This document shows positions 650 to 57,116 of a stretch of 64,000 nt of DNA, piece by piece (positions within the stretch are counted from its first letter, which is position 1; each line of letters starts with the position of its first letter). The position numbers and the translations under genes are program-made. The stretch comes from Candidatus Avidehalobacter gallistercoris. GTDB lineage: Bacteria; Bacillota; Dehalobacteriia; UBA4068; UBA4997. The DNA is taken from NCBI GenBank assembly GCA_018715045.1, contig DVMH01000027.1, forward strand, positions 6,306 through 70,305, given 5' to 3'. The notes under the pieces are model-generated. The model searched no databases. It saw only the letters and a program-made list of their open reading frames with translations, and was not told the DNA's origin.

Positions 650-3600
650 TCAGTCTGCCAAGTCAGTCCAGTTTTCTGCACTGCCAGACTTTTTGTATTC
701 GTGGCCGTTGGTGGCCTCGATGATGTTATAGTACGCCCAGTTGCTTACCGATACATCGGAGAAAGTGCGCAGACTGCCTGCATGAGCATCTACATAATCT
801 TCATCCGCCGCACGATCCAACAGACGGTTTGTGATGGTGGTCACTTCAGCACGGGTAATGGTATTGTTCGGGCGGAAAGAGCCGTCCTCATAGCCATTGA
901 TCCAGCCATACTGAATCGAGCCAACCACCTGATCATAGAACCAGTCGTCCTCATCTACATCAGTGAAGATGTTTTTGCCGCCGGTATCCAGTTCGGCAAA
1001 GCCCATGGCAATAACCGTAAACTCGGCGCGGGTAATGGCGCGATTCGGGTCGAAACGGTTATCGCCCACACCCTTAATAATTCCAAGAGACGCCAGAGTA
1101 TTCACAGGTTTGGCATACCATGCGTTATCCGCCACATCAACAAAATTCGCCGTTATGGCAACATTTTTATCCAGCAGCAGGTTATAGAACATCTGCGCCA
1201 CCTCGGCACGGGTCATAACACTGCCCGGAGCAAAAGCGCCATCAGCATAGCCGTTCAGGTAAGCGTTATGGTCTTTGGTGTTCAGCCAATCGGATACGTT
1301 GGTATCGTCAGGATCAGCCACACCGCTTTCCAGAGCAAAAATTGCCTCGATAGTGTGTCTTTCCCGCACTTTTTCAAAAGTGTACTTCTCCACTGCGCCG
1401 ACGCTCTCGCCGTCCACCAGCACGTCAGAGATCTCATAGCCTTCGTTGGCCGTGATGGTGAAAGTCCTTTCGCCATTGCGGATCACACTTACGCTGCCGT
1501 CAGGGCTGATCTTGCCGCCCTTGCCGGCGCTGGCGTTGATGATATAGCGGGTGGCGCCGCCGCCGGTATTCACGGCAAAGCTGGCGGTTATGGCCGCATT
1601 GGCAGTGATGTTTTCAATCTCATAACTGCTTACCGCGCCAACGCTTTGACCGTTGACGGTAACATCAGAGATGTGATAGCCTGAATTAGCGGCGATAGTG
1701 AAAGTCTGATTTTCGCCGCGCTTCACAAACACTGTGCCGCTCGGGCTGATTGTACCGTTAGCGCCAGCCTGCGCCGTAACGGTCAGATAGGTTGGCTCGT
1801 CGGGAATACCGTCACCGTCAGTATCCTCGCCAAAGTAGGCTACGACAGCGCTGTCCGCCTGCACATCTTCAAGGGTCCAGACGCTTTCAAACGGATTTTC
1901 GGCGTCATTGTTGGCATAGACCACATCATCGTTGACAGTGATGTAATCCAGAGCATAGTCCGCGTTCGCAGTGATGGTGAATTCAACATCATCGCCAGCC
2001 CTGACCACCTTAGTAGCAGGACTAATGGAGCCGTTGTTGGAACCGTCCACGCTGGCGGTTACGGTGTAGGTCTTGTATTTGTCAGGAATGCCATTGCTGT
2101 CAGCATCTTCGGCGAAAGTCACGACGATGCTATGGTCTGCCTGGACATCCGAGAAAGTATAGGTCTTGTTATCCTTATCATATCCTGCCAGGTCCTCTGT
2201 GCCATCGTTGCAGAACGGCGTTCTGTCAATGTAGATAAGATCCACTGCATATCCGGAAGCAGGGCTCAGCGTGAACGCCTTTTCGCCACCCTTCGTAACC
2301 GTAGTGGCCTTATCGGGATTAATGCTGCCATTCAGGCCGGCAAAAGGATAAATTACATAATCATTGCCAAGAACGTCCGCGCGGCCATCACCGTCCGCAT
2401 CGTAGCCCCAAACCGCATAAACGGTGATATTCGCCTTATCAAAGGTTACAGCAGGAACAATTGTAATCTTTGCAAAAGCTGCTTTATCATCATCGCTGTC
2501 GCTATAGATTTGATCGGTATCATTTGCAGACCAGCCAATGAATACTACTTTCTTTGCATCAGCTCCAGATTCCGTATAGGAAAGACTGCTGCCGTCAGCC
2601 AGCACCACAGTCTGTCCGGAAATATAATCGTTATCATCGGTTATACCGCCGGTAACAGTATCATTCTCCATAGCGTTCGTATCATAGGTCAAGGCGTACT
2701 TAGCCGCCTGCTCCACATCCGGAACGCCATCCCCGTCCTCATCATAAGCCCAGGCGGCGTAGAGCTGTGTGCCGGTTGCGGAAATCGTTACGCTGTACTG
2801 GAGCTTGCTCAAAACGCCTGTATCTTCAGCACCGTAAATTTTATTATCCTCTTTATCATTTTCTGTCAGCCAGCCGAGGAACAAGACGTCTTTTCCATCC
2901 ACCGCATCGTGCGTCGGGGCATCTACCTTAACGGCGGAATCCGTAAACCGATAACTCTTTTCTTCCAGATGCTGCTTGGTAATCGTTGCATTACCATCCG
3001 CGAACTCACCGCCGTTAGCGTTATAAGTCAACGTGCGGTTGTATTTATCGGGGATATTACCGTCGCCTGTAACTGCATCAAAAGTGATACTTATGGTATG
3101 ATTAGCCGCTACATTGTTGAAGCTGACCGCCTGGAAGCTGGTGGAAGTGTAGCCAGCACCGCTGGGAGAAGCCGCGCCATTAGTATTCTTGTACGGAACG
3201 TTGTCCACCGTAATGGTATCCACAGCATAACCGGAATCCGGGGTAATATTTACCGTCAGGTTTTGCCCCGCAACCACAGAGTAAGTGTTAGAGAGCGTTC
3301 TCGCCAAACTGTTCGCAGCAGGCTGATTAAAACTATAATCAACTGCGGCGGAGCCATTGTCGCCAGTTTCCACCGTGATAGTCCAGGTACCATCATTAAT
3401 ATCCGCAGTGCCATTGCCGTCAGCATCATAGCCCCAAACAGCATAAACCGTCGTATTTCCTGTGATATCCACAGAGGTAACTATATCAGTAGGCCGTGAA
3501 TCATTGACACTGTAAATATTTTCATGCTTAGTTTCAGACCAGCCCATGCACACAACCGCTACGGTCTTTTTATCCCAAGTGCCTTCAGCGTGGGTGGGAA

Positions 3601-6600
3601 GAGGCGCACCACTCAACAGCGTATAGCCTGTCTGCGCCACTACGTCAACAGTTTTTGTTGTCGCATTATCAGCAAATGCGCCGCCGTTAGCGTTATAAGT
3701 CAGAGTGTAGACATCCTCCGCCACATCAGCCGTACCATCGTTGTTGGTGTCGTAACCCCAAACCGCGTAAAGAGTCGTGTTAGTGTTCGGCATCGTATAC
3801 TGAGCGCTCGCTGCATATACGGTCAGAGCAGCAAATTCCTGCTTGTCTTCCAGGCTGTATATCTTATCCGTCTTAGTTTCCGTCCAGCCGATGAAAGCCA
3901 CTGCCTTGCCATCCACATTGCTGTGCGCCGGTTTATCCACCGACAGGGCAACAGTTGTGCCACCCTGTATACCGCCCTGCTGAGCAGGCACCCCTGTTAC
4001 CGTGCCCTCGATCGCATTGCCGTTATAAGTAAGCAGATATGTTGCCGTAGTAGCATCATATGCATTGGTGACGGTCACGCTCTTATCTAAGGTCACAGTA
4101 CCACTTTTGTCCGCATAATTGATGTAACCGCCCTGGCCGACCGCAGCAACTACATCTCCGGTAAACGCAGGTGTATAACCGTCAACATGAGTCTGCGTCA
4201 ACTGATATTGGGCGCCCACGGGCAGACCCTCAATCACTGCCGTATCCCCAGCTTTCAGGCTGAACGTACCGCCATTGCTTATTTTTGTGCCAGAATCAGT
4301 GTTGTTAATCTTAATCGCATATGCGCCGGAAAGAGCAGTCTGACCATTCAGGTTAGAGAGATTCAGGGTATAAGTAAACTCCTGATCTTGATTTGCACCA
4401 TCTCCAGTGGTAGCATCCACAGTCACGGTAAGGCTGCCGGTAAGCGCAGCCTCCGTCAGCAGGCCGTTGTTACCCAGACGCACGGTGACCTGCCCATTAG
4501 CAAACACGGGATAGTTATATGTCGATGCGGTATCGGTCACATTTGGAGATTTAACGAAATTCGCATCGGCTACGCGGGAGAGCTTATCGGTACCCGCTTT
4601 GATGTACAGAACGCTATCCACTATCATAGCGTTGTTTGATACACTAATACGGCTGCCGTCTTCCAGCATATGATAATCGGTCAGCTTATCGGCAGCATCG
4701 CCTATGCCAGTTGCCTGATAGTAAACATGCTCATAATAATAGGCAAGACCAGGCGTATAGCCTGTCGCCGGCTGAAGCCGGTAAGCAACGTCGTTAACAT
4801 TTACCACATTCTGACCCGGCAGAATAGTCGTTTGACCTGCCGCCGCGGCGGCTGCTTCGGTAAGGTAGGTTGTTGTGCCGCCTGCTGTATTTACCAGATT
4901 ATAGAGAACGGTATCCTCGGTGTACTTATAGAAAGCGTTGGATGATGCGGGCGTGAACACAGCAGTGGCAGTACCATACTGCTCGTCGCCCTGCGTGGCG
5001 CTATCATATTCCCCTGCATAGTAACTGGTTACACCGTTCAGGGAATTAGCCGTCAGATAATCGTTATCCGCAACGCCCCAGGTGTGCGTATCATCTTTGG
5101 CCACCGAGTAAAACAGGCGGATGGGATAGGCATTCTTACCCTCCTGAATAGCATAGGAGATTGTTCCGTTCGGGTCTACGGCAGCCGTGGCCGTGACTGT
5201 ACGCAGCGGCAGAAGATTAGCCGGAATCGTCCAGCTCAACATATTCAGATCATTGTCGCCTTTGGTAACGGTCAACTGGATTGTATTCAGATTGCCGCCG
5301 GGGTAAATATCATTGGCATCGATTTGTTGACTGGGGAAAGTATAGGTTGTCGTATCACCAATTGTATTCGAAGTTACAGCGTCATACTTATTGCCACCAA
5401 ACACGATAGACGGCATACCGGTCACATTCATATATGCCCCCAGCTTATCGGTAAAGGTCAGCACCTTACTATCGCCGCCAGTACCCGCCACGCCCTCAAT
5501 CTCGGTAGTCGGGAAAGAAGGATTGACGGTATTCACCTGATTTATTATTTGATCAAAAATGTTTTGCCAAGCGTCTCCTGTATCAAGATCCGTGGCAGCA
5601 AAGTAACCGTCATTGTACTTCAGGTCATCCAAAGTCAACTCAGTGTTGCTTCCGCGATAAATGGTCTGATATATGTGCCTATCTCTTATAGCAGCTTGTG
5701 CACGCATCAACTGAACAGAAGAATTATTAAATGATTCTAAAGCATCCTTTACAAGTACATTTTCTATACCTATTTGCAAAGCATCCGTCAGAGTTGCCTG
5801 TGGATTCAGCACCAGTTCAGCCATGGTTTTATCGGAATCATTTGTCAGATCGCCCAAACCCACGGTGTAGATATAAGGCTGCTTGCTGTTTCCGTTGTAG
5901 GTATAGTTTTCTTCTATGGCCTGCTTACCATAAGCCGCTGTCAGCAACGATAAAAAACTCTGAGCAATATAGTTCTGCGGGTTAAGATTTGCAATCTGTC
6001 CATCAATATTAAACGGATTTACATAACTAGACTCTTCCATTGCTTGCGGAGTGCCTACATAAAGCTCGTTTCCTCTTTCAGGGTTGCCGCTGGCCATGGA
6101 GATCACCACCGGAACGCGCAACACGGTTTCGGTTTGCCCGCTGGTATTTTTAACCTCAGCCGTTACGTCAGCCGCGCTGGAAAGATTATACATACCCTCG
6201 TTAATGCCCACCTGATAATTCCGATAGCAGGTGCTGTCAAAATCAAAGGCTATCGAGACCAACGGCTGGCCGGTCAAAATACCCCGCGAAGCAACACCGT
6301 CTTGAGTCCGAACCAGAAGTTGAGTGGTTGCGGTTCCATTATCATAGTTCTCATAATGATTCAGAGGCAGCAGGGTCAGTGAGGTGTTATCATAAGTAAC
6401 CACACTAACTCTGTTTTGCGGGTTGGAAACCAGAATCTCACGCAAAGCTGCATTTGCAGCCACAAGCATTTCATTCACATACTGCTCCATATCGGGCGAC
6501 ATATCCAGCACCAGAGAAACATCCATAGGAATCTGTGTCTGATCAATGATCGTGGCAGTCGAACCCAGGGCGGACAATACCACCTGGAAGTCTGCATCAG

Positions 6601-6865
6601 CTGCTTTGTCGATAGTCAGACCGCTGTCGCCCACATCACCCTGAAGCGTGATGCTTTCTTCGGATACGGTTTTATCCGTCCAGATACGGCCAATATCTTT
6701 GGTGGAAAGCGTATCCCCGCCAAAAACCTCACTCCATGTGGTTAAAGTGGAGGCGTCAGTTTGTACGCCCTCTACGTCGTCTGCCATCACCGGCACGCCC
6801 GGCGGAATAACCAATCCCACCAGCATAACCAATGACAGCGCCATTGCTATAAGCTTTCTTTTCAT
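650..6865 (-). CDS. giant secreted cell-surface protein, 2071 aa: signal peptide, N-terminal vWA-like domain, multiple Listeria-Bacteroides (List_Bact) repeats and Asp-rich Ca-binding-like repeats, three C-terminal SLH domains
   Basis: Sec signal peptide MKRKLIAMALSLVMLVGLVIPPGVPVMA. MIDAS-like LVLDMSPDM motif. Recurrent YTLTYNANGGxFADxxT and WGYDxDGxGxxD modules. C-terminus carries three copies of the xNGYxDGxFxPxxxITRAE SLH motif. Confidence 0.85.
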   Translation of the reverse strand: MKRKLIAMALSLVMLVGLVIPPGVPVMADDVEGVQTDASTLTTWSEVFGGDTLSTKDIGRIWTDKTVSEESITLQGDVGDSGLTIDKAADADFQVVLSALGSTATIIDQTQIPMDVSLVLDMSPDMEQYVNEMLVAANAALREILVSNPQNRVSVVTYDNTSLTLLPLNHYENYDNGTATTQLLVRTQDGVASRGILTGQPLVSIAFDFDSTCYRNYQVGINEGMYNLSSAADVTAEVKNTSGQTETVLRVPVVISMASGNPERGNELYVGTPQAMEESSYVNPFNIDGQIANLNPQNYIAQSFLSLLTAAYGKQAIEENYTYNGNSKQPYIYTVGLGDLTNDSDKTMAELVLNPQATLTDALQIGIENVLVKDALESFNNSSVQLMRAQAAIRDRHIYQTIYRGSNTELTLDDLKYNDGYFAATDLDTGDAWQNIFDQIINQVNTVNPSFPTTEIEGVAGTGGDSKVLTFTDKLGAYMNVTGMPSIVFGGNKYDAVTSNTIGDTTTYTFPSQQIDANDIYPGGNLNTIQLTVTKGDNDLNMLSWTIPANLLPLRTVTATAAVDPNGTISYAIQEGKNAYPIRLFYSVAKDDTHTWGVADNDYLTANSLNGVTSYYAGEYDSATQGDEQYGTATAVFTPASSNAFYKYTEDTVLYNLVNTAGGTTTYLTEAAAAAAGQTTILPGQNVVNVNDVAYRLQPATGYTPGLAYYYEHVYYQATGIGDAADKLTDYHMLEDGSRISVSNNAMIVDSVLYIKAGTDKLSRVADANFVKSPNVTDTASTYNYPVFANGQVTVRLGNNGLLTEAALTGSLTVTVDATTGDGANQDQEFTYTLNLSNLNGQTALSGAYAIKINNTDSGTKISNGGTFSLKAGDTAVIEGLPVGAQYQLTQTHVDGYTPAFTGDVVAAVGQGGYINYADKSGTVTLDKSVTVTNAYDATTATYLLTYNGNAIEGTVTGVPAQQGGIQGGTTVALSVDKPAHSNVDGKAVAFIGWTETKTDKIYSLEDKQEFAALTVYAASAQYTMPNTNTTLYAVWGYDTNNDGTADVAEDVYTLTYNANGGAFADNATTKTVDVVAQTGYTLLSGAPLPTHAEGTWDKKTVAVVCMGWSETKHENIYSVNDSRPTDIVTSVDITGNTTVYAVWGYDADGNGTADINDGTWTITVETGDNGSAAVDYSFNQPAANSLARTLSNTYSVVAGQNLTVNITPDSGYAVDTITVDNVPYKNTNGAASPSGAGYTSTSFQAVSFNNVAANHTISITFDAVTGDGNIPDKYNRTLTYNANGGEFADGNATITKQHLEEKSYRFTDSAVKVDAPTHDAVDGKDVLFLGWLTENDKEDNKIYGAEDTGVLSKLQYSVTISATGTQLYAAWAYDEDGDGVPDVEQAAKYALTYDTNAMENDTVTGGITDDNDYISGQTVVLADGSSLSYTESGADAKKVVFIGWSANDTDQIYSDSDDDKAAFAKITIVPAVTFDKANITVYAVWGYDADGDGRADVLGNDYVIYPFAGLNGSINPDKATTVTKGGEKAFTLSPASGYAVDLIYIDRTPFCNDGTEDLAGYDKDNKTYTFSDVQADHSIVVTFAEDADSNGIPDKYKTYTVTASVDGSNNGSISPATKVVRAGDDVEFTITANADYALDYITVNDDVVYANNDAENPFESVWTLEDVQADSAVVAYFGEDTDGDGIPDEPTYLTVTAQAGANGTISPSGTVFVKRGENQTFTIAANSGYHISDVTVNGQSVGAVSSYEIENITANAAITASFAVNTGGGATRYIINASAGKGGKISPDGSVSVIRNGERTFTITANEGYEISDVLVDGESVGAVEKYTFEKVRERHTIEAIFALESGVADPDDTNVSDWLNTKDHNAYLNGYADGAFAPGSVMTRAEVAQMFYNLLLDKNVAITANFVDVADNAWYAKPVNTLASLGIIKGVGDNRFDPNRAITRAEFTVIAMGFAELDTGGKNIFTDVDEDDWFYDQVVGSIQYGWINGYEDGSFRPNNTITRAEVTTITNRLLDRAADEDYVDAHAGSLRTFSDVSVSNWAYYNIIEATNGHEYKKSGSAENWTDLAD

Positions 6866-7061: not shown

Positions 7062-7099
7062 AAAAACGCCCCCGGCCAAATGGCCAGAGGCGTTTTTTT
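7062..7099 (-). terminator. rho-independent terminator downstream of hppA; the A/T flanks suggest it could work in both directions
   Basis: aaaaaaa-cgcccccggcc-aat-ggccagaggcg-ttttttt. Imperfect GC-rich stem flanked by A7 and T7. Confidence 0.6.
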
Positions 7100-7121
7100 A
7101 TGCATTTTGTTATCTATCTGT

Positions 7122-9164
7122 TTACAGGAACAGGGGCACGAAGACCAGCGCGATAATCGTCATCAGCTTGATCAGAATGTTGATGGACGGACCCGAAGTA
7201 TCCTTGAAAGGATCGCCCACAGTGTCGCCGTTAACAGCCGCCGCGTGCGCATCAGAGCCTTTGCCGCCAAAGTGGCCGCCCTCGATGTACTTCTTGGCGT
7301 TATCCCAGGCGCCGCCCGCGTTGCTCATCATCACAGCCAGCAGGAAACCGGTCACCAGAGAGCCGGCCAGCAGACCGCCCAGAGCCTCAGGCCCCAGCAC
7401 CAGGCCGACAAACAGCGGCGCAACCACAGCCAGCACAGCCGGCATAACCATCTCACGCAGAGCCGCCGTAGTAGAGATATCCACGCAGCGGGCATAATCC
7501 GGCTTGGCAGCGCCCTCCATCAGGCCGGGGATTTCACGGAACTGACGGCGCACCTCAGTAATCATATGCGAAGCCGAACGCCCCACAGCGCTCATTGTCA
7601 TCGCAGAGAACAGGAATGGCAGCATACCGCCGATAAACAGGCCGATAACCACCATCGGATTCATAATATCAATATTGGTAACTCCCGCTGCCTGCGTGTA
7701 GGCGGAAAACAGCGCCAAAGCAGTCAGCGCAGCAGAACCAATAGCAAAGCCCTTGCCGATGGCAGCGGTGGTGTTGCCAACCGCGTCCAGATTATCGGTG
7801 ATCTCACGCACATGGTGTTCCAGACCGGCCATCTCAGCAATGCCGCCAGCATTATCGGAAATCGGGCCATACGCGTCAACCGCCACCACAATGCCGGTGG
7901 TGGAAAGCATACCCACAGCCGCGATGGCAATGCCGTACAGACCGGCAAAGTAAAACGCAGCGCCGATACCGCAGCAGATAACGATGATCGGCAGCGCGGT
8001 GGAAGTCATCCCAGTGGCAATACCGGAAATGATGTTGGTCGCAGTGCCAGTCTCGCAGGAAGCGGCAATGTCCTTAACCGGCTTATAGTCAGCCGAAGTG
8101 TAATATTCGGTGATCTTACCAATCAATGTACCGGCCACCAGACCAGCCACACTGGCAATGAACACGCCGGTGTTGGTGTACATACCGTTCTGGAAAGTTT
8201 CCGGCAGAACAAACTTGCAGATAACGAACGTGCCCACGATAGAAAGCAGCGTTGCCACATATGTACCGGCGTCCAGAGCTTTCTGGGGGTTTTTGCCCTC
8301 GCCCGTGCGCACAAAGAAAGTGCCGATAATGCTGGAAACAATGCCCCAGGCCGCCAGCAGCAGCGGCACGATAACGCCCTCGCCGTTATCTCCGATAGCC
8401 AAAGACGCGCCCAGCGCAATGGCTGCAATAACAGAACCAACATAAGATTCAAACAAGTCGGAACCCATACCGGCCACGTCGCCGACGTTATCGCCCACGT
8501 TATCAGCAATAACCGCCGGGTTACGCGGATCATCTTCGGGAATACCGGCCTCAACCTTGCCAACCAGGTCAGCGCCCACGTCGGCAGCCTTGGTGTAGAT
8601 ACCGCCGCCCACACGGCCAAACAGAGCCACGGACGAAGCGCCCAGGCTGAATCCGTTAATAATGTCAGACTGACCGGGGAAAAGCAAAACCACAATACCC
8701 AGACCCAAAAGACCCAGGCCAACCACGCTCATGCCCATAACAGCGCCGCCGGAGAAAGCCACGCTCAAAGCCTTGTTCAGGCCGGAGGCCTGCGCAGCAT
8801 TGGCAGTTCTGGCATTGGCCTTGGTTGCAATACGCATACCGATATTGCCAGCCAGAATGGAGCAGACCGCGCCAATCAGGAAAGGAACGGCAGTCAGCGG
8901 ATTCAGGCCGCCCTCAGTGCCGCCGGTAATCATACCGGCCCCCACGATGACCAGCGCCATAACCACGACGAAAATAACCAGAGTTTTATACTGACGGCCC
9001 AAAAAAGCCATTGCGCCCTCATGGATAGAATTCATAATCTCCACCATGCGGTCATTGCCGGGCTCCACAGCCGTCACCCGCTTGGCCAGCACCACTGCGA
9101 ACAGCAATGCCAGCACGCCGGCCAACGCACCGATCACCGGAGCGTAATTCATAATGAAATCCAT
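7122..9164 (-). CDS. hppA: membrane-bound proton/sodium-translocating pyrophosphatase (V-type H+/Na+-PPase)
   Basis: 680-aa polytopic membrane protein. Conserved [18 protein letters not shown] block plus further conserved PPase motifs. Confidence 0.9.
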
Positions 9165-9218
9165 AGTTCTCTCAAAATCCTCCTAACTTTGCCTTAAAAC
9201 GATTGAATCCCTGCGGCA

Positions 9219-13507: not shown

Positions 13508-13547
13508 ACGCGAAATAAAGTATAATTTTCTATACTATATAATAAAA

Positions 13548-13820
13548 ACTCTGCGCGGTGCCGCAAGGCATAACAGGGAAACAGGTTCAAATCCTGTACT
13601 GTCCCAGCAACCGTGATACTGACGAACGGGCGCACAGCCACTATTCCGCAGGAATGGGAAGGAGCCCTATTAGGAAGAAGTTAAGTCGGTAGACCTACCG
13701 CAGGCAGTTACTTTCTGGGCAAAAGCATTATGGTCTTACTATGCCGTAATGAAACAGACTGGCAGCGCCGGCGGAAAGTGACCGCGTTCATTCCGTCCGG
13801 CGCTTTTATTTTTGCAATTT
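13548..13820 (+). promoter_or_regulatory. cobalamin (AdoCbl) riboswitch with terminator expression platform, leading the cbiP operon
   Basis: Conserved core gggaaacaggttcaaatcctgtactgtcccagcaaccgtga. B12-box-like gccact segment. Terminator gccggcgg...ccgtccggcgcttttattttt sits just upstream of cbiP. A candidate promoter (-35 TTGTCT 13497-13502, -10 TATAAT 13520-13525) lies upstream. Confidence 0.8.
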
Positions 13821-30984: not shown

Positions 30985-31059
30985 TCCTCGATAGCTCAAC
31001 GGTAGAGCACTCGGCTGTTAACCGAGGGGTTGTTGGTTCGAATCCAACTCGGGGAGCCA
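30985..31059 (+). tRNA. tRNA-Asn (anticodon GTT), CCA encoded
   Basis: Cloverleaf drawn by hand. Acceptor stem tcctcga/tcgggga with one G-U pair. D arm gctc...gagc. Anticodon stem ctcgg/ccgag with loop ctGTTaa. T arm gttggttcgaatccaac. Confidence 0.8.
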
Positions 31060-31107
31060 TATAGTTAAAGCAACTGCTCTTTCCGAACAGTTGCTTTAAT
31101 TATACCC

Positions 31108-31184
31108 GGGCCATTAGCTCAGTTGGTTAGAGCCACCGGCTCATAACCGGTCGGTCTCAGGTTCGAGTCCTGAATGGCCCACCA
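31108..31184 (+). tRNA. tRNA with CAT anticodon (elongator Met or Ile2-lysidine type), CCA encoded
   Basis: Acceptor stem gggccat/atggccc. D arm tagctcagttggttagagc. Anticodon stem accgg/ccggt with loop ctCATaa. T arm aggttcgagtcct. Confidence 0.8.
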
Positions 31185-41439: not shown

Positions 41440-41463
41440 TTTTAAGCATATGTGGAGGATTTT

Positions 41464-44124
<2,661 letters not shown>

Positions 44125-44141
44125 TCCGGAGGTTGATATCA

Positions 44142-45239
44142 ATGTTGACAGACTGGAAACCGCAAATTGAGCGAGCCGAGGAAAAACTGCACGAGCTGGA
44201 AAAAGCTCTCGACATGACCTGAAGGGAGGATGAGGCCGCGCGGCTGGAAGAACAATCCGCCGCCCCCGGCTTCTGGGATGATCAAGAGGCGGCGCAGAGC
44301 CTGCTGCAAAAGCTGACCCAACTGAAATCCGTCATCAACAACTATAATGATTTAAGCAGCCGTCTTTCCGACGTGCAAACATTGCTGGAATTGGCGCTGG
44401 AGGAAAATGACGAGGCCCTGGAAAAGGAAATCGAACATGATTTCCACGCGCTATCCCGCGATTTGGATAAGCTGGAGATCGAAGTGCTGTTCAGCGGCCC
44501 CTATGACGACCACAACTGCATTTTAACGCTGCACGCGGGTGCGGGCGGCACTGAAGCGCAGGACTGGGCGGATATGCTATACCGCATGTATACCCGCTTT
44601 TGCGAGAAGAATGGCTTCAAATGCGAGGTCCTGGATTATCTGGACGGTGAAGAAGCCGGCTTAAAAAGCGTTACCTTGGGCATTGAGGGCGCACATGCTT
44701 ATGGTCATTTCCGCTCGGAAAAAGGGGTTCATCGGCTGGTGCGTATCTCGCCGTTTGACGCTTCGGCCAGACGTCACACCTCGTTCGCTTCGGTAGATAT
44801 TATGCCGCAGGTACAGGAAGATAATGAAATCATTATCCACCCGGAGGAGTTAAAAATAGACACCTATCGCAGCGGCGGTGCGGGCGGCCAGCACGTCAAC
44901 AAGACTGACTCTGCCGTGCGTATCACTCACCTGCCCACTGGCATTGTAGTGCAGTGCCAGGATGAACGCTCGCAGTATAACAACAAGGATCGTGCGATGA
45001 ATCTGCTAAAAGCAAGGCTGCTGGAAGAAAAAGTGCGCGAGCGCGAAAAAGAGCTGGCCGAAATCCGCGGCGAACACACCGAAATCGGCTGGGGCAACCA
45101 GATACGTTCTTACGTGTTTCAGCCATACCGCATGGTAAAAGACCACCGCACAAATGAAGAATCCGGCAACGTTGACGCAGTAATGGACGGTGAGCTGCTG
45201 CCCTTTATGAGCGCTTATCTGAAAAAGTTTAAGGGTTGA
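44142..45239 (+). CDS. prfB: peptide chain release factor 2, interrupted by an in-frame TGA at codon 27 (44220-44222). The same frame continues with RF2 homology and no +1 frameshift
   Basis: ATG at 44142 behind ggagg. Frame 0 reads [54 protein letters not shown]...SPGA... The GGQ motif is conserved in the downstream portion ([11 protein letters not shown]). The +1 frame after the TGA dies within 33 codons. Confidence 0.8.
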
Positions 45240-45411
45240 TAAACTAAAACTTTTGGCAGAGTTTTGATAAAAATTTTCGCTTCATCAATAAATTACACGG
45301 AAAGCATCGGTAAAACCTGCGTGTTCAGAGTACAGCGCAAGGCGGACAAAAAGAATGCATTAGTTAACTTTTATTAATATAAAATTTTGCAAGGATTTGG
45401 GGGTTATATTT

Positions 45412-55207: not shown

Positions 55208-55873
55208 TTATTCCACTTTGGCCGCAGCAAACAACACCCGCCGCTGCCAATGCTCAATCTGCGTAATAACCAAACCCGTCGCCGTCAGTTTTGCCGCCGC
55301 CTCGTTCTGACGCTCTTCCGGCAGCAGCAGACAAAACCGTCCGCCAGGAGCAAGAATATAGGCAGCCGCTTGTATAAGCGACTTCAAACCGCCAAAGCAC
55401 TCAATCCGCGCCGCCCGCCTCTCCAGACAGGGACTAAGCCGGCTTGCTTCAGCCCGCCAGAACGGAGGATTGCTGACAACCAAATCGCACCCGGCGGCGG
55501 GAAAATATTGTGATATCTGACGCCAATCACCGCAAACAAAGCGTATCTGCCGCAACAGTTCCGGCACGTTATGATTCAATTCGATACTGCGCTGCGCCAG
55601 GCTCACATTGGCAGACATGATTTCCAGACCAGTGCAACTGGCCTCATTGAGCTTCGCCCATAAATAAAACGTCAGCCCACCGTTGCCGCTGCCCAACTCG
55701 ATAACTCGCCGCGCTTCCGGCAAGGCGTCCGCCGCAAAATCCGCCAGCCGCACCGCCTCACCGGAAAAACAAAAAAACCGAGGATCTTGCAGCAGCCTCA
55801 ATCCTCGCTCTCGCAAATCAATTATGACTTCGCCGGGGCGGCAAAGCAACGCCCCGGACTTGTTAGCTGCCAT
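55208..55873 (-). CDS. yabB: SAM-dependent N6-adenine methyltransferase (YabB/TrmN6-like)
   Basis: VIELGSGNGG motif I and NPPF motif IV. Confidence 0.7.
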   Translation of the reverse strand: MAANKSGALLCRPGEVIIDLRERGLRLLQDPRFFCFSGEAVRLADFAADALPEARRVIELGSGNGGLTFYLWAKLNEASCTGLEIMSANVSLAQRSIELNHNVPELLRQIRFVCGDWRQISQYFPAAGCDLVVSNPPFWRAEASRLSPCLERRAARIECFGGLKSLIQAAAYILAPGGRFCLLLPEERQNEAAAKLTATGLVITQIEHWQRRVLFAAAKVE

Positions 55874-55876
55874 AAA

Positions 55877-56149
55877 TCAAGCGTTCTCCTTCAAAAAGCT
55901 CTGGCAGAACAGACACTCCTCGCCATGACGGTTCTGCGCAAAATAGGTGGCGCAAATGTGATAGCCCTCGTCATAAAGCTTGGTTAGCTCCTCCACTCCC
56001 TCGCTCTTGATGTTTTCCTCACTCAGGCGCTCCAGCAGGCGAGCGTTCTGCACCTCCAGCGAGTCCACTTTCAGCCGCAGCTCCTGCAAACGATCCTGCA
56101 ACGCCGCCAGAGCCTCTTCAATCTCCCAAATTTCATTCCGCAGCGCCAT
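55877..56149 (-). CDS. yabA: DNA replication initiation-control protein YabA
   Basis: Coiled-coil N-terminus and C-terminal Zn-binding HICATYF...ECLFCQS. 90 aa from the ATG at 56149. Confidence 0.7.
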   Translation of the reverse strand: MALRNEIWEIEEALAALQDRLQELRLKVDSLEVQNARLLERLSEENIKSEGVEELTKLYDEGYHICATYFAQNRHGEECLFCQSFLKENA

Positions 56150-57116
56150 GTTGCTCACTCTCCCTCTGCCTGTCCTGCTTCGGTTGATTGGGGCGGTGCG
56201 CCCCGCCGCCGCGCCGGTTGCCCGGTCTTCTGGAATTGCGCCGCAGTGTGCCGCCGCCCTTTTGTTCTGACTTATCGGAACGCTTATCAGGCAAGTTTTC
56301 ACCTGGCATATCATCGGATACCGCCGCCAGCTCCGCCGACGCCAGATCAGGCACATCGTCAACAGAAAGCGCCGCCAGCCGCTCACGCACGCCACAGGTT
56401 TTGGCTGTGCAGTCGCTGCAATTTTTATCGCAGGCGGCAAGAGCCGGCTTCGGTTCGTCCTGCCCGGCAAGTTCTGGCGAGTTCTCGTCATATTCGTAGT
56501 ATAAGCAGCACATCAACCTGCCGCACACACCGGAAATTTTGGCCGGATTCAACGCCAGATTTTGCTTCTTCGCCATTTTGATGGAAACGGGATGAAATCC
56601 ATCCAGAAAAGAGGCGCAGCAAAGCTCGCGCCCGCAGGTGGAATATCCCCCCACCAGGCGCGCCTCATCCCGCACGCCAACCTGACGCAGCTCAATGCGC
56701 GTGTGAAAATGCCCGGCCAGAACTTTCACCAGCTCACGGAAATCCACTCGATTGTCCGACGTGAAATAAAACACGATTTTGCTGCCGTCAAACGTATAGC
56801 TGGCTTTGATCAGCTTCATCGGCAGTTTGGCCGCGATGATCTGCTGCTGGCAGAATTCAAAAGCCGCCGGTTCCTTGGCCTTATTCTCCTGATAGCTTTG
56901 CTCGTCATCGTCGGTTGCCAGACGGATAAGCGGCTTCAGCGGCTGAGATAGACTTTGCTCATCCACTTCCTGCGCAGGCGTGGCCACCGTGCCATAATCC
57001 AGGCCGCGGCTGCTCTCCACGATAACGTGGTCGCCGAAAACAGCATCCACCCCATTAAGCTTAAAATAATATATTTTCCCGGCGCGCTCAAAACGCACGC
57101 CCACCACTTGTACCAT
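56133..57116 (-). CDS. ricT: PSP1-domain protein RicT/YaaT
   Basis: VVGVRFERAGKIYYF N-terminus typical of YaaT. Basic low-complexity C-terminal tail. Start at the second ATG (57116), behind a gaggac RBS. Confidence 0.75.
   Translation of the reverse strand: MVQVVGVRFERAGKIYYFKLNGVDAVFGDHVIVESSRGLDYGTVATPAQEVDEQSLSQPLKPLIRLATDDDEQSYQENKAKEPAAFEFCQQQIIAAKLPMKLIKASYTFDGSKIVFYFTSDNRVDFRELVKVLAGHFHTRIELRQVGVRDEARLVGGYSTCGRELCCASFLDGFHPVSIKMAKKQNLALNPAKISGVCGRLMCCLYYEYDENSPELAGQDEPKPALAACDKNCSDCTAKTCGVRERLAALSVDDVPDLASAELAAVSDDMPGENLPDKRSDKSEQKGGGTLRRNSRRPGNRRGGGAHRPNQPKQDRQRESEQHGAAE

Follow-up and report, generated by a model that had tools for sequence, protein, structure and literature searches.

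How does a bacterium make its release factor 2 (RF2) when the gene for this factor carries an in-frame UGA, an RF2-specific stop codon, close to its beginning? The question is raised by the prfB gene within a stretch of 64,000 nucleotides (nt) from Candidatus Avidehalobacter gallistercoris (assembly GCA_018715045.1, contig DVMH01000027.1, positions 6,306 to 70,305 of the forward strand). This whole stretch is referred to here as the window, and all coordinates are counted from its first letter. RF2 autoregulation is a textbook case of programmed recoding in bacteria, and only one solution, a +1 frameshift, is known so far. A 2025 survey found the canonical prfB frameshift in 64% of 12,753 RefSeq genomes (PMC12421855), so an earlier note on this DNA was roughly right in placing it in most bacteria. 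The same note offered two readings of the interrupted gene, either a form of RF2 autoregulation based on readthrough or a nonsense mutation or sequencing error. Here we report that the in-frame TGA at codon 27 of prfB is real and conserved beyond chance. We further consider it likely, from sequence comparison, that this is the functional prfB of the organism and that full-length RF2 is made by RF2-sensitive readthrough of the UGA, acting as negative feedback.

Results

An in-frame UGA at codon 27 interrupts an otherwise intact prfB

Translation of frame 0 from the ATG at 44142, which is preceded by a good ribosome-binding site as the earlier note had read it, yielded 26 codons, a TGA and then RF2 sequence that resumes in the same frame and runs to 45239. 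The elements of the gene are as follows.

44128 to 44132, plus strand: Shine-Dalgarno (SD) sequence GGAGG, 9 nt 5′ of the prfB ATG, read from the sequence
44142 to 44219, plus strand: prfB codons 1 to 26, helix alpha-1 of RF2 domain 1, from translation and homology to uninterrupted 365-residue RF2 proteins
44202 to 44219, plus strand: KALDMT, codons 21 to 26, the final six residues before the UGA and a candidate 5′ or nascent-peptide recoding context
44220 to 44222, plus strand: in-frame UGA, prfB codon 27, proposed RF2 sensor and readthrough site
44223 to 44226, plus strand: conserved 3′ context A-R-G-G (+4 to +7)
44223 to 45239, plus strand: prfB codons 28 to 365 and the true stop TGA (45237 to 45239), with the rest of domain 1, SPF and GGQ

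Both functional motifs of the factor are intact, namely, the stop-recognition tripeptide SPF at residue 203 (44748 to 44756) and the catalytic GGQ at residue 248 (44883 to 44891). With a placeholder at residue 27, the 365-residue product scored 527 bits against the NCBIfam model TIGR00020 (prfB), whose curated cut-off is 370 bits, and the match was a single colinear stretch that joined residues 10 to 361 to profile positions 2 to 353 of 353, straight across codon 27. The product also aligned without gaps to the Bacillus subtilis RF2 structures (PDB 9fy1 and 6szs). In this alignment, L23 falls on the frameshift-site Leu of B. subtilis and codon 27 on Ser28, and the earlier claim that the UGA lies four codons after the conserved Leu, with the spacing to the FW motif seen in B. 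subtilis, is thereby borne out. An AlphaFold2 model of the uninterrupted relative P0001 (85% identical) consists in this region of a helix at residues 2 to 22, a turn at 23 and 24 and a helix at 25 to 39. The domain-1 predicted local distance difference test score is about 90, and residue 27 is predicted to lie in the first turn of surface helix alpha-2, past the alpha-1/alpha-2 turn.

The stop is conserved in ten lineages

A protein search for close RF2 relatives returned many sequences at 70 to 96% identity. Some were uninterrupted proteins of 365 residues, and most had been called as truncated products of 288 to 335 residues. We examined the DNA of 12 clusters of relatives and found an in-frame stop in nine of them, which together with the window makes ten TGA lineages (the window, L081, L083, L087, L089, L090, L092, L096, L115 and the more divergent L114). 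In all ten, the stop sits exactly at codon 27 and is TGA, never TAA or TAG; the genuine prfB stops of these lineages are TGA, TAA or TAG. An alignment of prfB from relatives had been suggested as a check in the earlier note, and the conservation of the TGA in ten lineages leaves its observation standing. The codon was seen in independent NCBI, ENA, Logan and JGI assemblies. The L083 lineage, for instance, is indexed in 1098 collection blocks and carries TGA27 in four separate assemblies, and a scan of metagenome contigs with AARGCTCTNGAYATGACNNNNARGG gave 17 matches, one of which was prfB (L083 lineage, with TGA) while the others were due to chance.

Eight lineages were analysed over all 365 codons, and none contained another stop or an indel. 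The remaining two, L115 and L114 (the contig of the latter is cut at its 5′ end), are each open through to one terminal stop (369 residues as extracted). Among nine TGA lineages, the pooled proportion of synonymous differences (pS) is about 0.6, and synonymous sites are thus near saturation. Eight of the nine possible single-base changes to TGA produce a sense codon and the ninth produces TAA. Since most point changes would remove the stop and it is nonetheless invariant in ten lineages at such divergence, the stop itself is under purifying selection. Relatives with a sense codon at position 27 carry GGC or CAG, encoding Gly or Gln.

Both sides of the stop and its immediate context are constrained

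We then compared selection along the gene by the ratio of nonsynonymous to synonymous differences (pN/pS). The ratio is 0.35 for codons 1 to 26, 0.36 for codons 28 to 77 and 0.14 for codons 78 to 365. Codons 28 to 34 gave 0.26 (pS 0.57), and because they are under selection although they precede any candidate internal start, this short segment is evidently translated in frame 0. The comparative signature of programmed readthrough, a conserved in-frame stop with purifying selection in the same frame on both sides, was therefore found at this locus. Together with the ten lineages and their divergence, this argues for the readthrough-type autoregulation that had been put forward as one of the two readings.

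The sequence next to the stop showed further constraint. KALDMT accumulated 63 synonymous and no nonsynonymous pairwise differences among the nine lineages that end in DMT, whereas sense relatives vary before position 27 (ALKIA-Q, ALDIT-G and ALDIG-G) and have Ile, not Met, at codon 25. On the 3′ side, positions +4 to +7 read A-R-G-G in all ten TGA lineages despite synonymous alternatives. Codon 28 is AGG in all three lineages with Arg at this position (AGG makes up only 7% of Arg codons in the window) and AAG in all seven lineages with Lys (AAG makes up 45% of Lys codons), and codon 29 starts with G in every TGA lineage. The sense relatives have AAA, AAA and CGA at codon 28. This difference in context between TGA and sense lineages persists inside a clade with 100% bootstrap support that holds both states. 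In L114 the upstream peptide differs (ALNIA) and TGA-AAGG is identical, which suggests that the 3′ context is the more general feature. From its conservation, KALDMT would have a functional role in recoding. An SD-like AAGGGAGGA immediately 3′ of the UGA, pointed out earlier, is indeed present in the window; as a functional element it was rejected, because it is not conserved (L081 has AAGGGTCGAGGAA) and only TGA-A-R-G-G is invariant.

The true prfB stop in the window is a tandem, TGA followed directly by TAA (45237 to 45242). In the four lineages whose prfB ends in TGA, this stop is followed by T, T, T or G, as opposed to the invariant A after the internal TGA.

No frameshift signal accompanies the UGA. 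The +1 and +2 frames are closed across the site and do not resemble RF2, and about 30 codons beyond the UGA the +1 frame comes to an end, in agreement with the earlier statement that no +1 frameshift route exists. There is no slippery CUU_U or CTTT before the stop, the preceding codon being ACN (Thr), or GCT in L114. Nor is there an SD-like element about 3 nt upstream, where the sequence AAR GCT CTS GAY ATG ACN is devoid of any GGGGG- or AGGAGG-type element. A +1 or −1 frameshift was rejected on account of the closed frames and the missing slippery site, hopping or bypassing for want of a matching landing codon, and transcriptional slippage for want of a conserved homopolymer run. Of the five features that define the canonical frameshift cassette, the gene lacks four and retains the premature UGA.

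A proposed model of RF2 synthesis by UGA readthrough

In the mechanism that we propose, ribosomes would initiate at the strong ribosome-binding site and proceed through 26 codons, so that the nascent peptide ends in the conserved ...KALDMT, whereupon UGA27 would enter the A site in its A-R-G-G 3′ context. There, RF2 would compete with a near-cognate aminoacyl-tRNA, which by analogy with Escherichia coli and B. subtilis would most likely be tRNA-Trp and possibly a Cys or Arg tRNA; UGA followed by A is said to favour readthrough by tRNA-Trp. When RF2 is abundant, most ribosomes would terminate and release a 26-residue peptide. When it is scarce, more of them would insert an amino acid, stay in frame and complete the 365-residue factor. 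The logic of this negative feedback would be that of the CUU-UGA-C +1 frameshift, but without a change of frame. We infer that readthrough occurs, that an amino acid is inserted at codon 27 and that the efficiency would track the RF2 level. The occurrence of Gly, Gln or Ser in relatives suggests that the position tolerates several amino acids.

Several points weigh against this proposal. It derives from the comparison of sequences, and the organism is uncultured. Ordinary near-cognate readthrough of UGA usually amounts to a few percent, and an essential, abundant factor made through a stop would therefore need very high initiation or an unusually efficient signal. Of the approximately 14 genuine TGA stops in the window, 6 are likewise followed by A, so the A at +4 alone is not enough to make the codon leaky. 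A robust stimulatory RNA structure was sought 3′ of the UGA, and none was consistent across the ten lineages. The analysis covered 64 kb of the genome, and a UGA-reading tRNA, a selenocysteine (Sec) machinery or a second prfB may be encoded elsewhere, although the present copy of prfB is plainly under selection. Finally, the state has reverted to sense several times, which indicates that the device is dispensable.

Published rates give a frame for the efficiency in question. According to PMC7918605, which summarises Karow 1998, UGA readthrough in B. subtilis measured with catA86-TGA is 6% in the wild type and 19 to 54% in prfB mutants. In E. coli, TGA is decoded mostly as Trp and then as Cys, with context-dependent rates of up to 80% under stress, and G-rich, T-poor flanks favour readthrough, on which the final residues of the nascent peptide also have an influence (PMC11126739).

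Alternative explanations

The best surviving alternative, though in our view an unlikely one, is dedicated decoding, in which a specialised tRNA encoded elsewhere would read UGA27, either as Sec through SelB and a selenocysteine insertion sequence (SECIS) or by a suppressor tRNA-Gly or tRNA-Trp with a UCA anticodon. Recoding would then be site specific and not a near-cognate leak. An RNA element that might serve it can be drawn downstream of the stop.

44231 to 44274, plus strand: possible hairpin that starts 8 nt 3′ of the UGA, of doubtful status

In this drawing, 91% of cells pair, compared with 87.5% in shuffles, and two pairs are compensatory. However, the hairpin is not the minimum free energy fold in six of the ten lineages, where its z-score is near 0, and sense relatives keep 9 to 12 of its 14 pairs. 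RNAalifold gave no covariation support for the downstream region (+0.22), and no Rfam match was found 3′ of the UGA even at E ≤ 10. The gene fdhF often encodes a selenoprotein. As fdhF is reported in most Dehalobacteriia (PMC10327494), a Sec machinery may exist in these organisms, and several sense relatives carry Gly at position 27. Against this, homologues have Gly, Gln or Ser at the position and never Cys, and in the model residue 27 sits on a surface helix of domain 1, within its first turn, which is not a redox site. The only tRNA genes in the window are tRNA-Asn (GTT) and tRNA-Met (CAT), at 30985 to 31184 on the plus strand, so that the 64-kb window holds no UGA-reading tRNA, and UGA is a stop in about a quarter of the window genes.

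An internal start is improbable. It would make codons 1 to 26 a regulatory upstream open reading frame (ORF) encoding a leader peptide and would have a truncated RF2 begin at Leu35 (CTG or TTG), perhaps by termination-reinitiation.

44244 to 44246, plus strand: Leu35 codon CTG, start of the 331-residue product in some public annotations and rival internal start

In its favour, five of the ten lineages have AGGAGG at a distance of 8 nt before codon 35, codon 35 is TTG in L087, L096 and L114, a purine-rich SD-like sequence follows the UGA in every lineage, and gene callers and NCBI annotate 331-residue products. However, in the other seven lineages codon 35 is CTG, which serves very poorly as a start, two lineages (L092 and L081) lack a well-spaced SD sequence, and in the window no in-frame ATG, GTG or TTG follows the UGA until codon 78 (44373). 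The starts called differ by lineage, giving products of 288, 295, 299, 311, 312, 331 and 335 residues. Moreover, codons 28 to 34 would be untranslated on this account despite their low pN/pS at high pS, and codons 1 to 26 keep homology to helix alpha-1 of RF2 with a pN/pS equal to that of the downstream domain-1 codons. An ATG at 44230, just past AAGGGAGGA, was also considered as a start and rejected, as it lies in the +1 frame, has no spacer and is absent in relatives.

We hold it just as improbable that the UGA is a tolerated leaky nonsense codon, that is, a TGA fixed by drift for which basal readthrough and a compensatory context suffice, any feedback being incidental. The lability of the state speaks for it, with sense and TGA lineages interleaved even inside the fully supported clade, as do the host-associated and uncultured nature of the organisms and the report that constrained in-frame stops are widespread in bacteria (PMC7918605). 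Drift, however, would hardly have kept a codon that eight of nine point mutations remove invariant across ten lineages with near-saturated synonymous sites. The stop is always the RF2-specific TGA and never TAA, which is one transition away, and at most four codons separate it from the ancestral regulatory UGA. Competition by RF2 at UGA27 would in any case yield feedback, whether or not the feedback was selected.

It is scarcely credible that the gene is an artefact or dead, be it through errors in sequencing or assembly, a nonsense mutation peculiar to one strain, decay to a pseudogene or reassignment of UGA throughout the genome: although a lone in-frame stop in sequence from a metagenome-assembled genome (MAG) is the usual signature of error and annotation pipelines treat this prfB as truncated, error and strain-specific mutation, the second reading of the earlier note, are ruled out by ten lineages that share TGA27 in independent assemblies at pS of about 0.6 with strong purifying selection on both sides, no further lesions and SPF and GGQ kept. 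As to reassignment (tables 4 and 25), which the earlier note had also discounted, TGA ends about 13 of the 49 window ORFs, including ATGA stop/start overlaps, in no other window gene does a coding-like piece precede an in-frame TGA, and RF2 itself is present and conserved. Because TGA ends these ORFs and prfB alone is interrupted, UGA is a normal stop in the window.

Evolutionary history of the interrupted gene

The SecA encoded in the window shares 100% identity with the SecA of Candidatus Avidehalobacter gallistercoris. This organism is a chicken-gut MAG species of GTDB order UBA4068, family UBA5755 (PMC8035907), and UBA4068 is one of the three orders of the class Dehalobacteriia (PMC10327494). 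Among the matches listed, 80 distant Firmicutes prfB loci (at most 61% identity) contained CTTTGAC in 50 cases and CTTTAAC in 12, and the nine loci lacking the motif, again among the matches listed, had no same-frame stop just upstream. In relatives at about 62% identity, the protein reads "LFD", as is typical of CTCTTTGAC. The RF2 of the sole cultured relative among the matches listed, Dehalobacterium formicoaceticum, contains ...LRVSL-DILQK..., a sequence compatible with the canonical frameshift; judging from the protein, its prfB would use it. In the family to which the window belongs, Leu and Asp are joined in frame at this junction (GCT CTS GAY), which indicates that the frameshift was lost there. 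A plausible course of events would thus lead from ancestors that used the frameshift, through its loss, to the acquisition of a UGA four codons downstream.

We built bootstrapped neighbour-joining trees of the TGA and sense lineages. L114, with TGA, falls outside a group with 100% support, which holds an all-sense clade and a mixed clade; in the latter, sense P0001 (Gly) and P0002, P0003 and P0005 (Gln) are nested among TGA lineages. Since the trees interleave both states, the position must have changed between UGA and sense at least about three times, a lability that resembles the repeated loss of the canonical frameshift. The earlier note had remarked that TCA to TGA would match the Ser of B. 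subtilis. Codon 27 does align with Ser28, but the ancestral residue is, to judge from the GGC and CAG codons of the sense relatives, Gly or Gln and not Ser.

Gene neighbourhood and annotation

The gene adjoins secA.

41452 to 44124, plus strand: secA, adjoining prfB upstream (NCBIfam SecA, 1220 bits)

The prfB ATG begins 17 nt after the end of secA, and GAGGTG- or GGAG-type sites occur at the same place 5′ of prfB in relatives. The gene order secA-prfB-transketolase is common to most relatives with sufficient flanking sequence. Departures from it include PIN-domain genes (470 to 889) in place of secA upstream of prfB in L096, a DUF6485 gene upstream of prfB in L092 and a GGDEF-domain gene instead of transketolase downstream in L115; in L083, a gene for a ParE toxin (6172 to 6432) lies downstream of the transketolase genes.

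The public prfB calls in the window (44373 to 45239) and in relatives (P0004 and P0006 to P0047) are N-terminally truncated, with arbitrary starts that differ by lineage. One of them, NCBI MBQ3180657.1, is a 331-residue product that starts at a CTG codon. The in-frame TGA accounts for this systematic mis-annotation of prfB, by which public pipelines call RF2 proteins of 288 to 335 residues and which the present comparison exposes.

Elsewhere in the window, a YabA-like gene (55877 to 56491, minus strand) and a methyltransferase gene (55208 to 55873, minus strand) share a frame and are separated by a TGA and one codon before the next ATG. They were considered as a second case of readthrough and rejected, because to all appearances they are two ordinary neighbours. 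At 13539 to 13716 on the plus strand lies a cobalamin riboswitch (Rfam RF00174, 95 bits). Downstream of it, a long run of ORFs on the same strand extends from 13835 to about 30866 with several ATGA stop/start overlaps, and the three ORFs sampled from this run encode a CobB/CobQ-like amidotransferase, CobD/CbiB and CbiD, all of cobalamin biosynthesis. On the minus strand, positions 650 to 6865 hold an ORF of 2071 codons with C-terminal S-layer homology domains and DUF7601 and without a Pfam match over most of its length; its product is probably a giant cell-surface protein. An ORF of 705 codons at 7080 to 9197 on the plus strand has no Pfam match at E ≤ 1e-5 and is overlapped by an opposite-strand ORF of 680 codons (7122 to 9164, minus strand).

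Discussion

We lean towards the view that prfB of these gut Dehalobacteriia represents the first natural case of RF2 autoregulation by readthrough of an in-frame UGA, which would have evolved after loss of the +1 frameshift, four codons from the old site and with a new readthrough signal composed of KALDMT and the 3′ context UGA-ARGG. If so, both solutions, frameshift and readthrough, are evolutionarily reachable, and a regulatory stop was re-invented once the frameshift had been lost. The locus would also provide a compact bacterial readthrough cassette of about 18 nt upstream and 4 nt downstream of the stop. It would further raise the question of how an essential factor is made adequately through a stop, and the answer may reveal unusually efficient decoding of UGA in this lineage.

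Precedents in the literature are few. According to Atkins et al. 2016 (PMC5009743), in-frame UGA readthrough had been entertained as a possibility for RF2 even before the sequence of its gene was known, but no RF2 gene is built in this way. Readthrough is never mentioned in the survey of 12,753 genomes (PMC12421855). Among the titles and abstracts of 40 of 47 post-2016 papers with both "prfB" and "readthrough", a body of work from which many subscription journals are missing, none described RF2 readthrough.

The comparison with the canonical +1 cassette is the closest. In both, an early RF2-specific UGA (codon 27 here and codon 26 in E. coli) lies in the same gene, here four codons from the homologous Leu; the stop is always TGA and never TAG; RF2 competes, or here would compete, with an alternative decoding event; and the arrangement has been lost repeatedly in evolution. 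In contrast to the canonical cassette, the gene described here has no slippery CUU_U and, 3 nt upstream, no SD-like element; its stop is followed by A instead of C, and the remaining ORF is in frame 0, not +1. The alternative event would thus have to be the insertion of an amino acid at the UGA and not a tRNA slip. The arrangement agrees with the hypothetical one discussed by Atkins et al. 2016 in that low RF2 would favour near-cognate readthrough (PMC5009743); whereas they knew of none among sequenced RF2 genes, it occurs here in Dehalobacteriia of the gut that are uncultured and not represented in the reference sets surveyed.

Among release factors of other systems, plant eRF1-1 offers a parallel, since according to PMC5397192 the amount made depends on readthrough of a stop codon that eRF1-1 recognises, with negative feedback. 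That system, as far as described there, is eukaryotic and coupled to nonsense-mediated decay and has no useful protein homology to RF2, whereas the stop in prfB is inside the coding sequence at codon 27. A giant-virus release-factor gene, as cited in PMC5009743, is likewise interrupted by a stop that needs readthrough; by that account, it is viral, also requires a separate frameshift, and its autoregulation was not shown. As for other cases of UGA readthrough by tRNA-Trp in bacteria and phages, the readthrough context of Q-beta A1 is a UGA followed by A. In Q-beta A1 and in B. subtilis catA86-TGA, near-cognate decoding competes with RF2, as we propose for UGA27, but what is extended or rescued there is another protein, and RF2 itself is not regulated. 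Against this background, the prfB gene described here constitutes a real, conserved and apparently undescribed variant of a textbook regulatory device.

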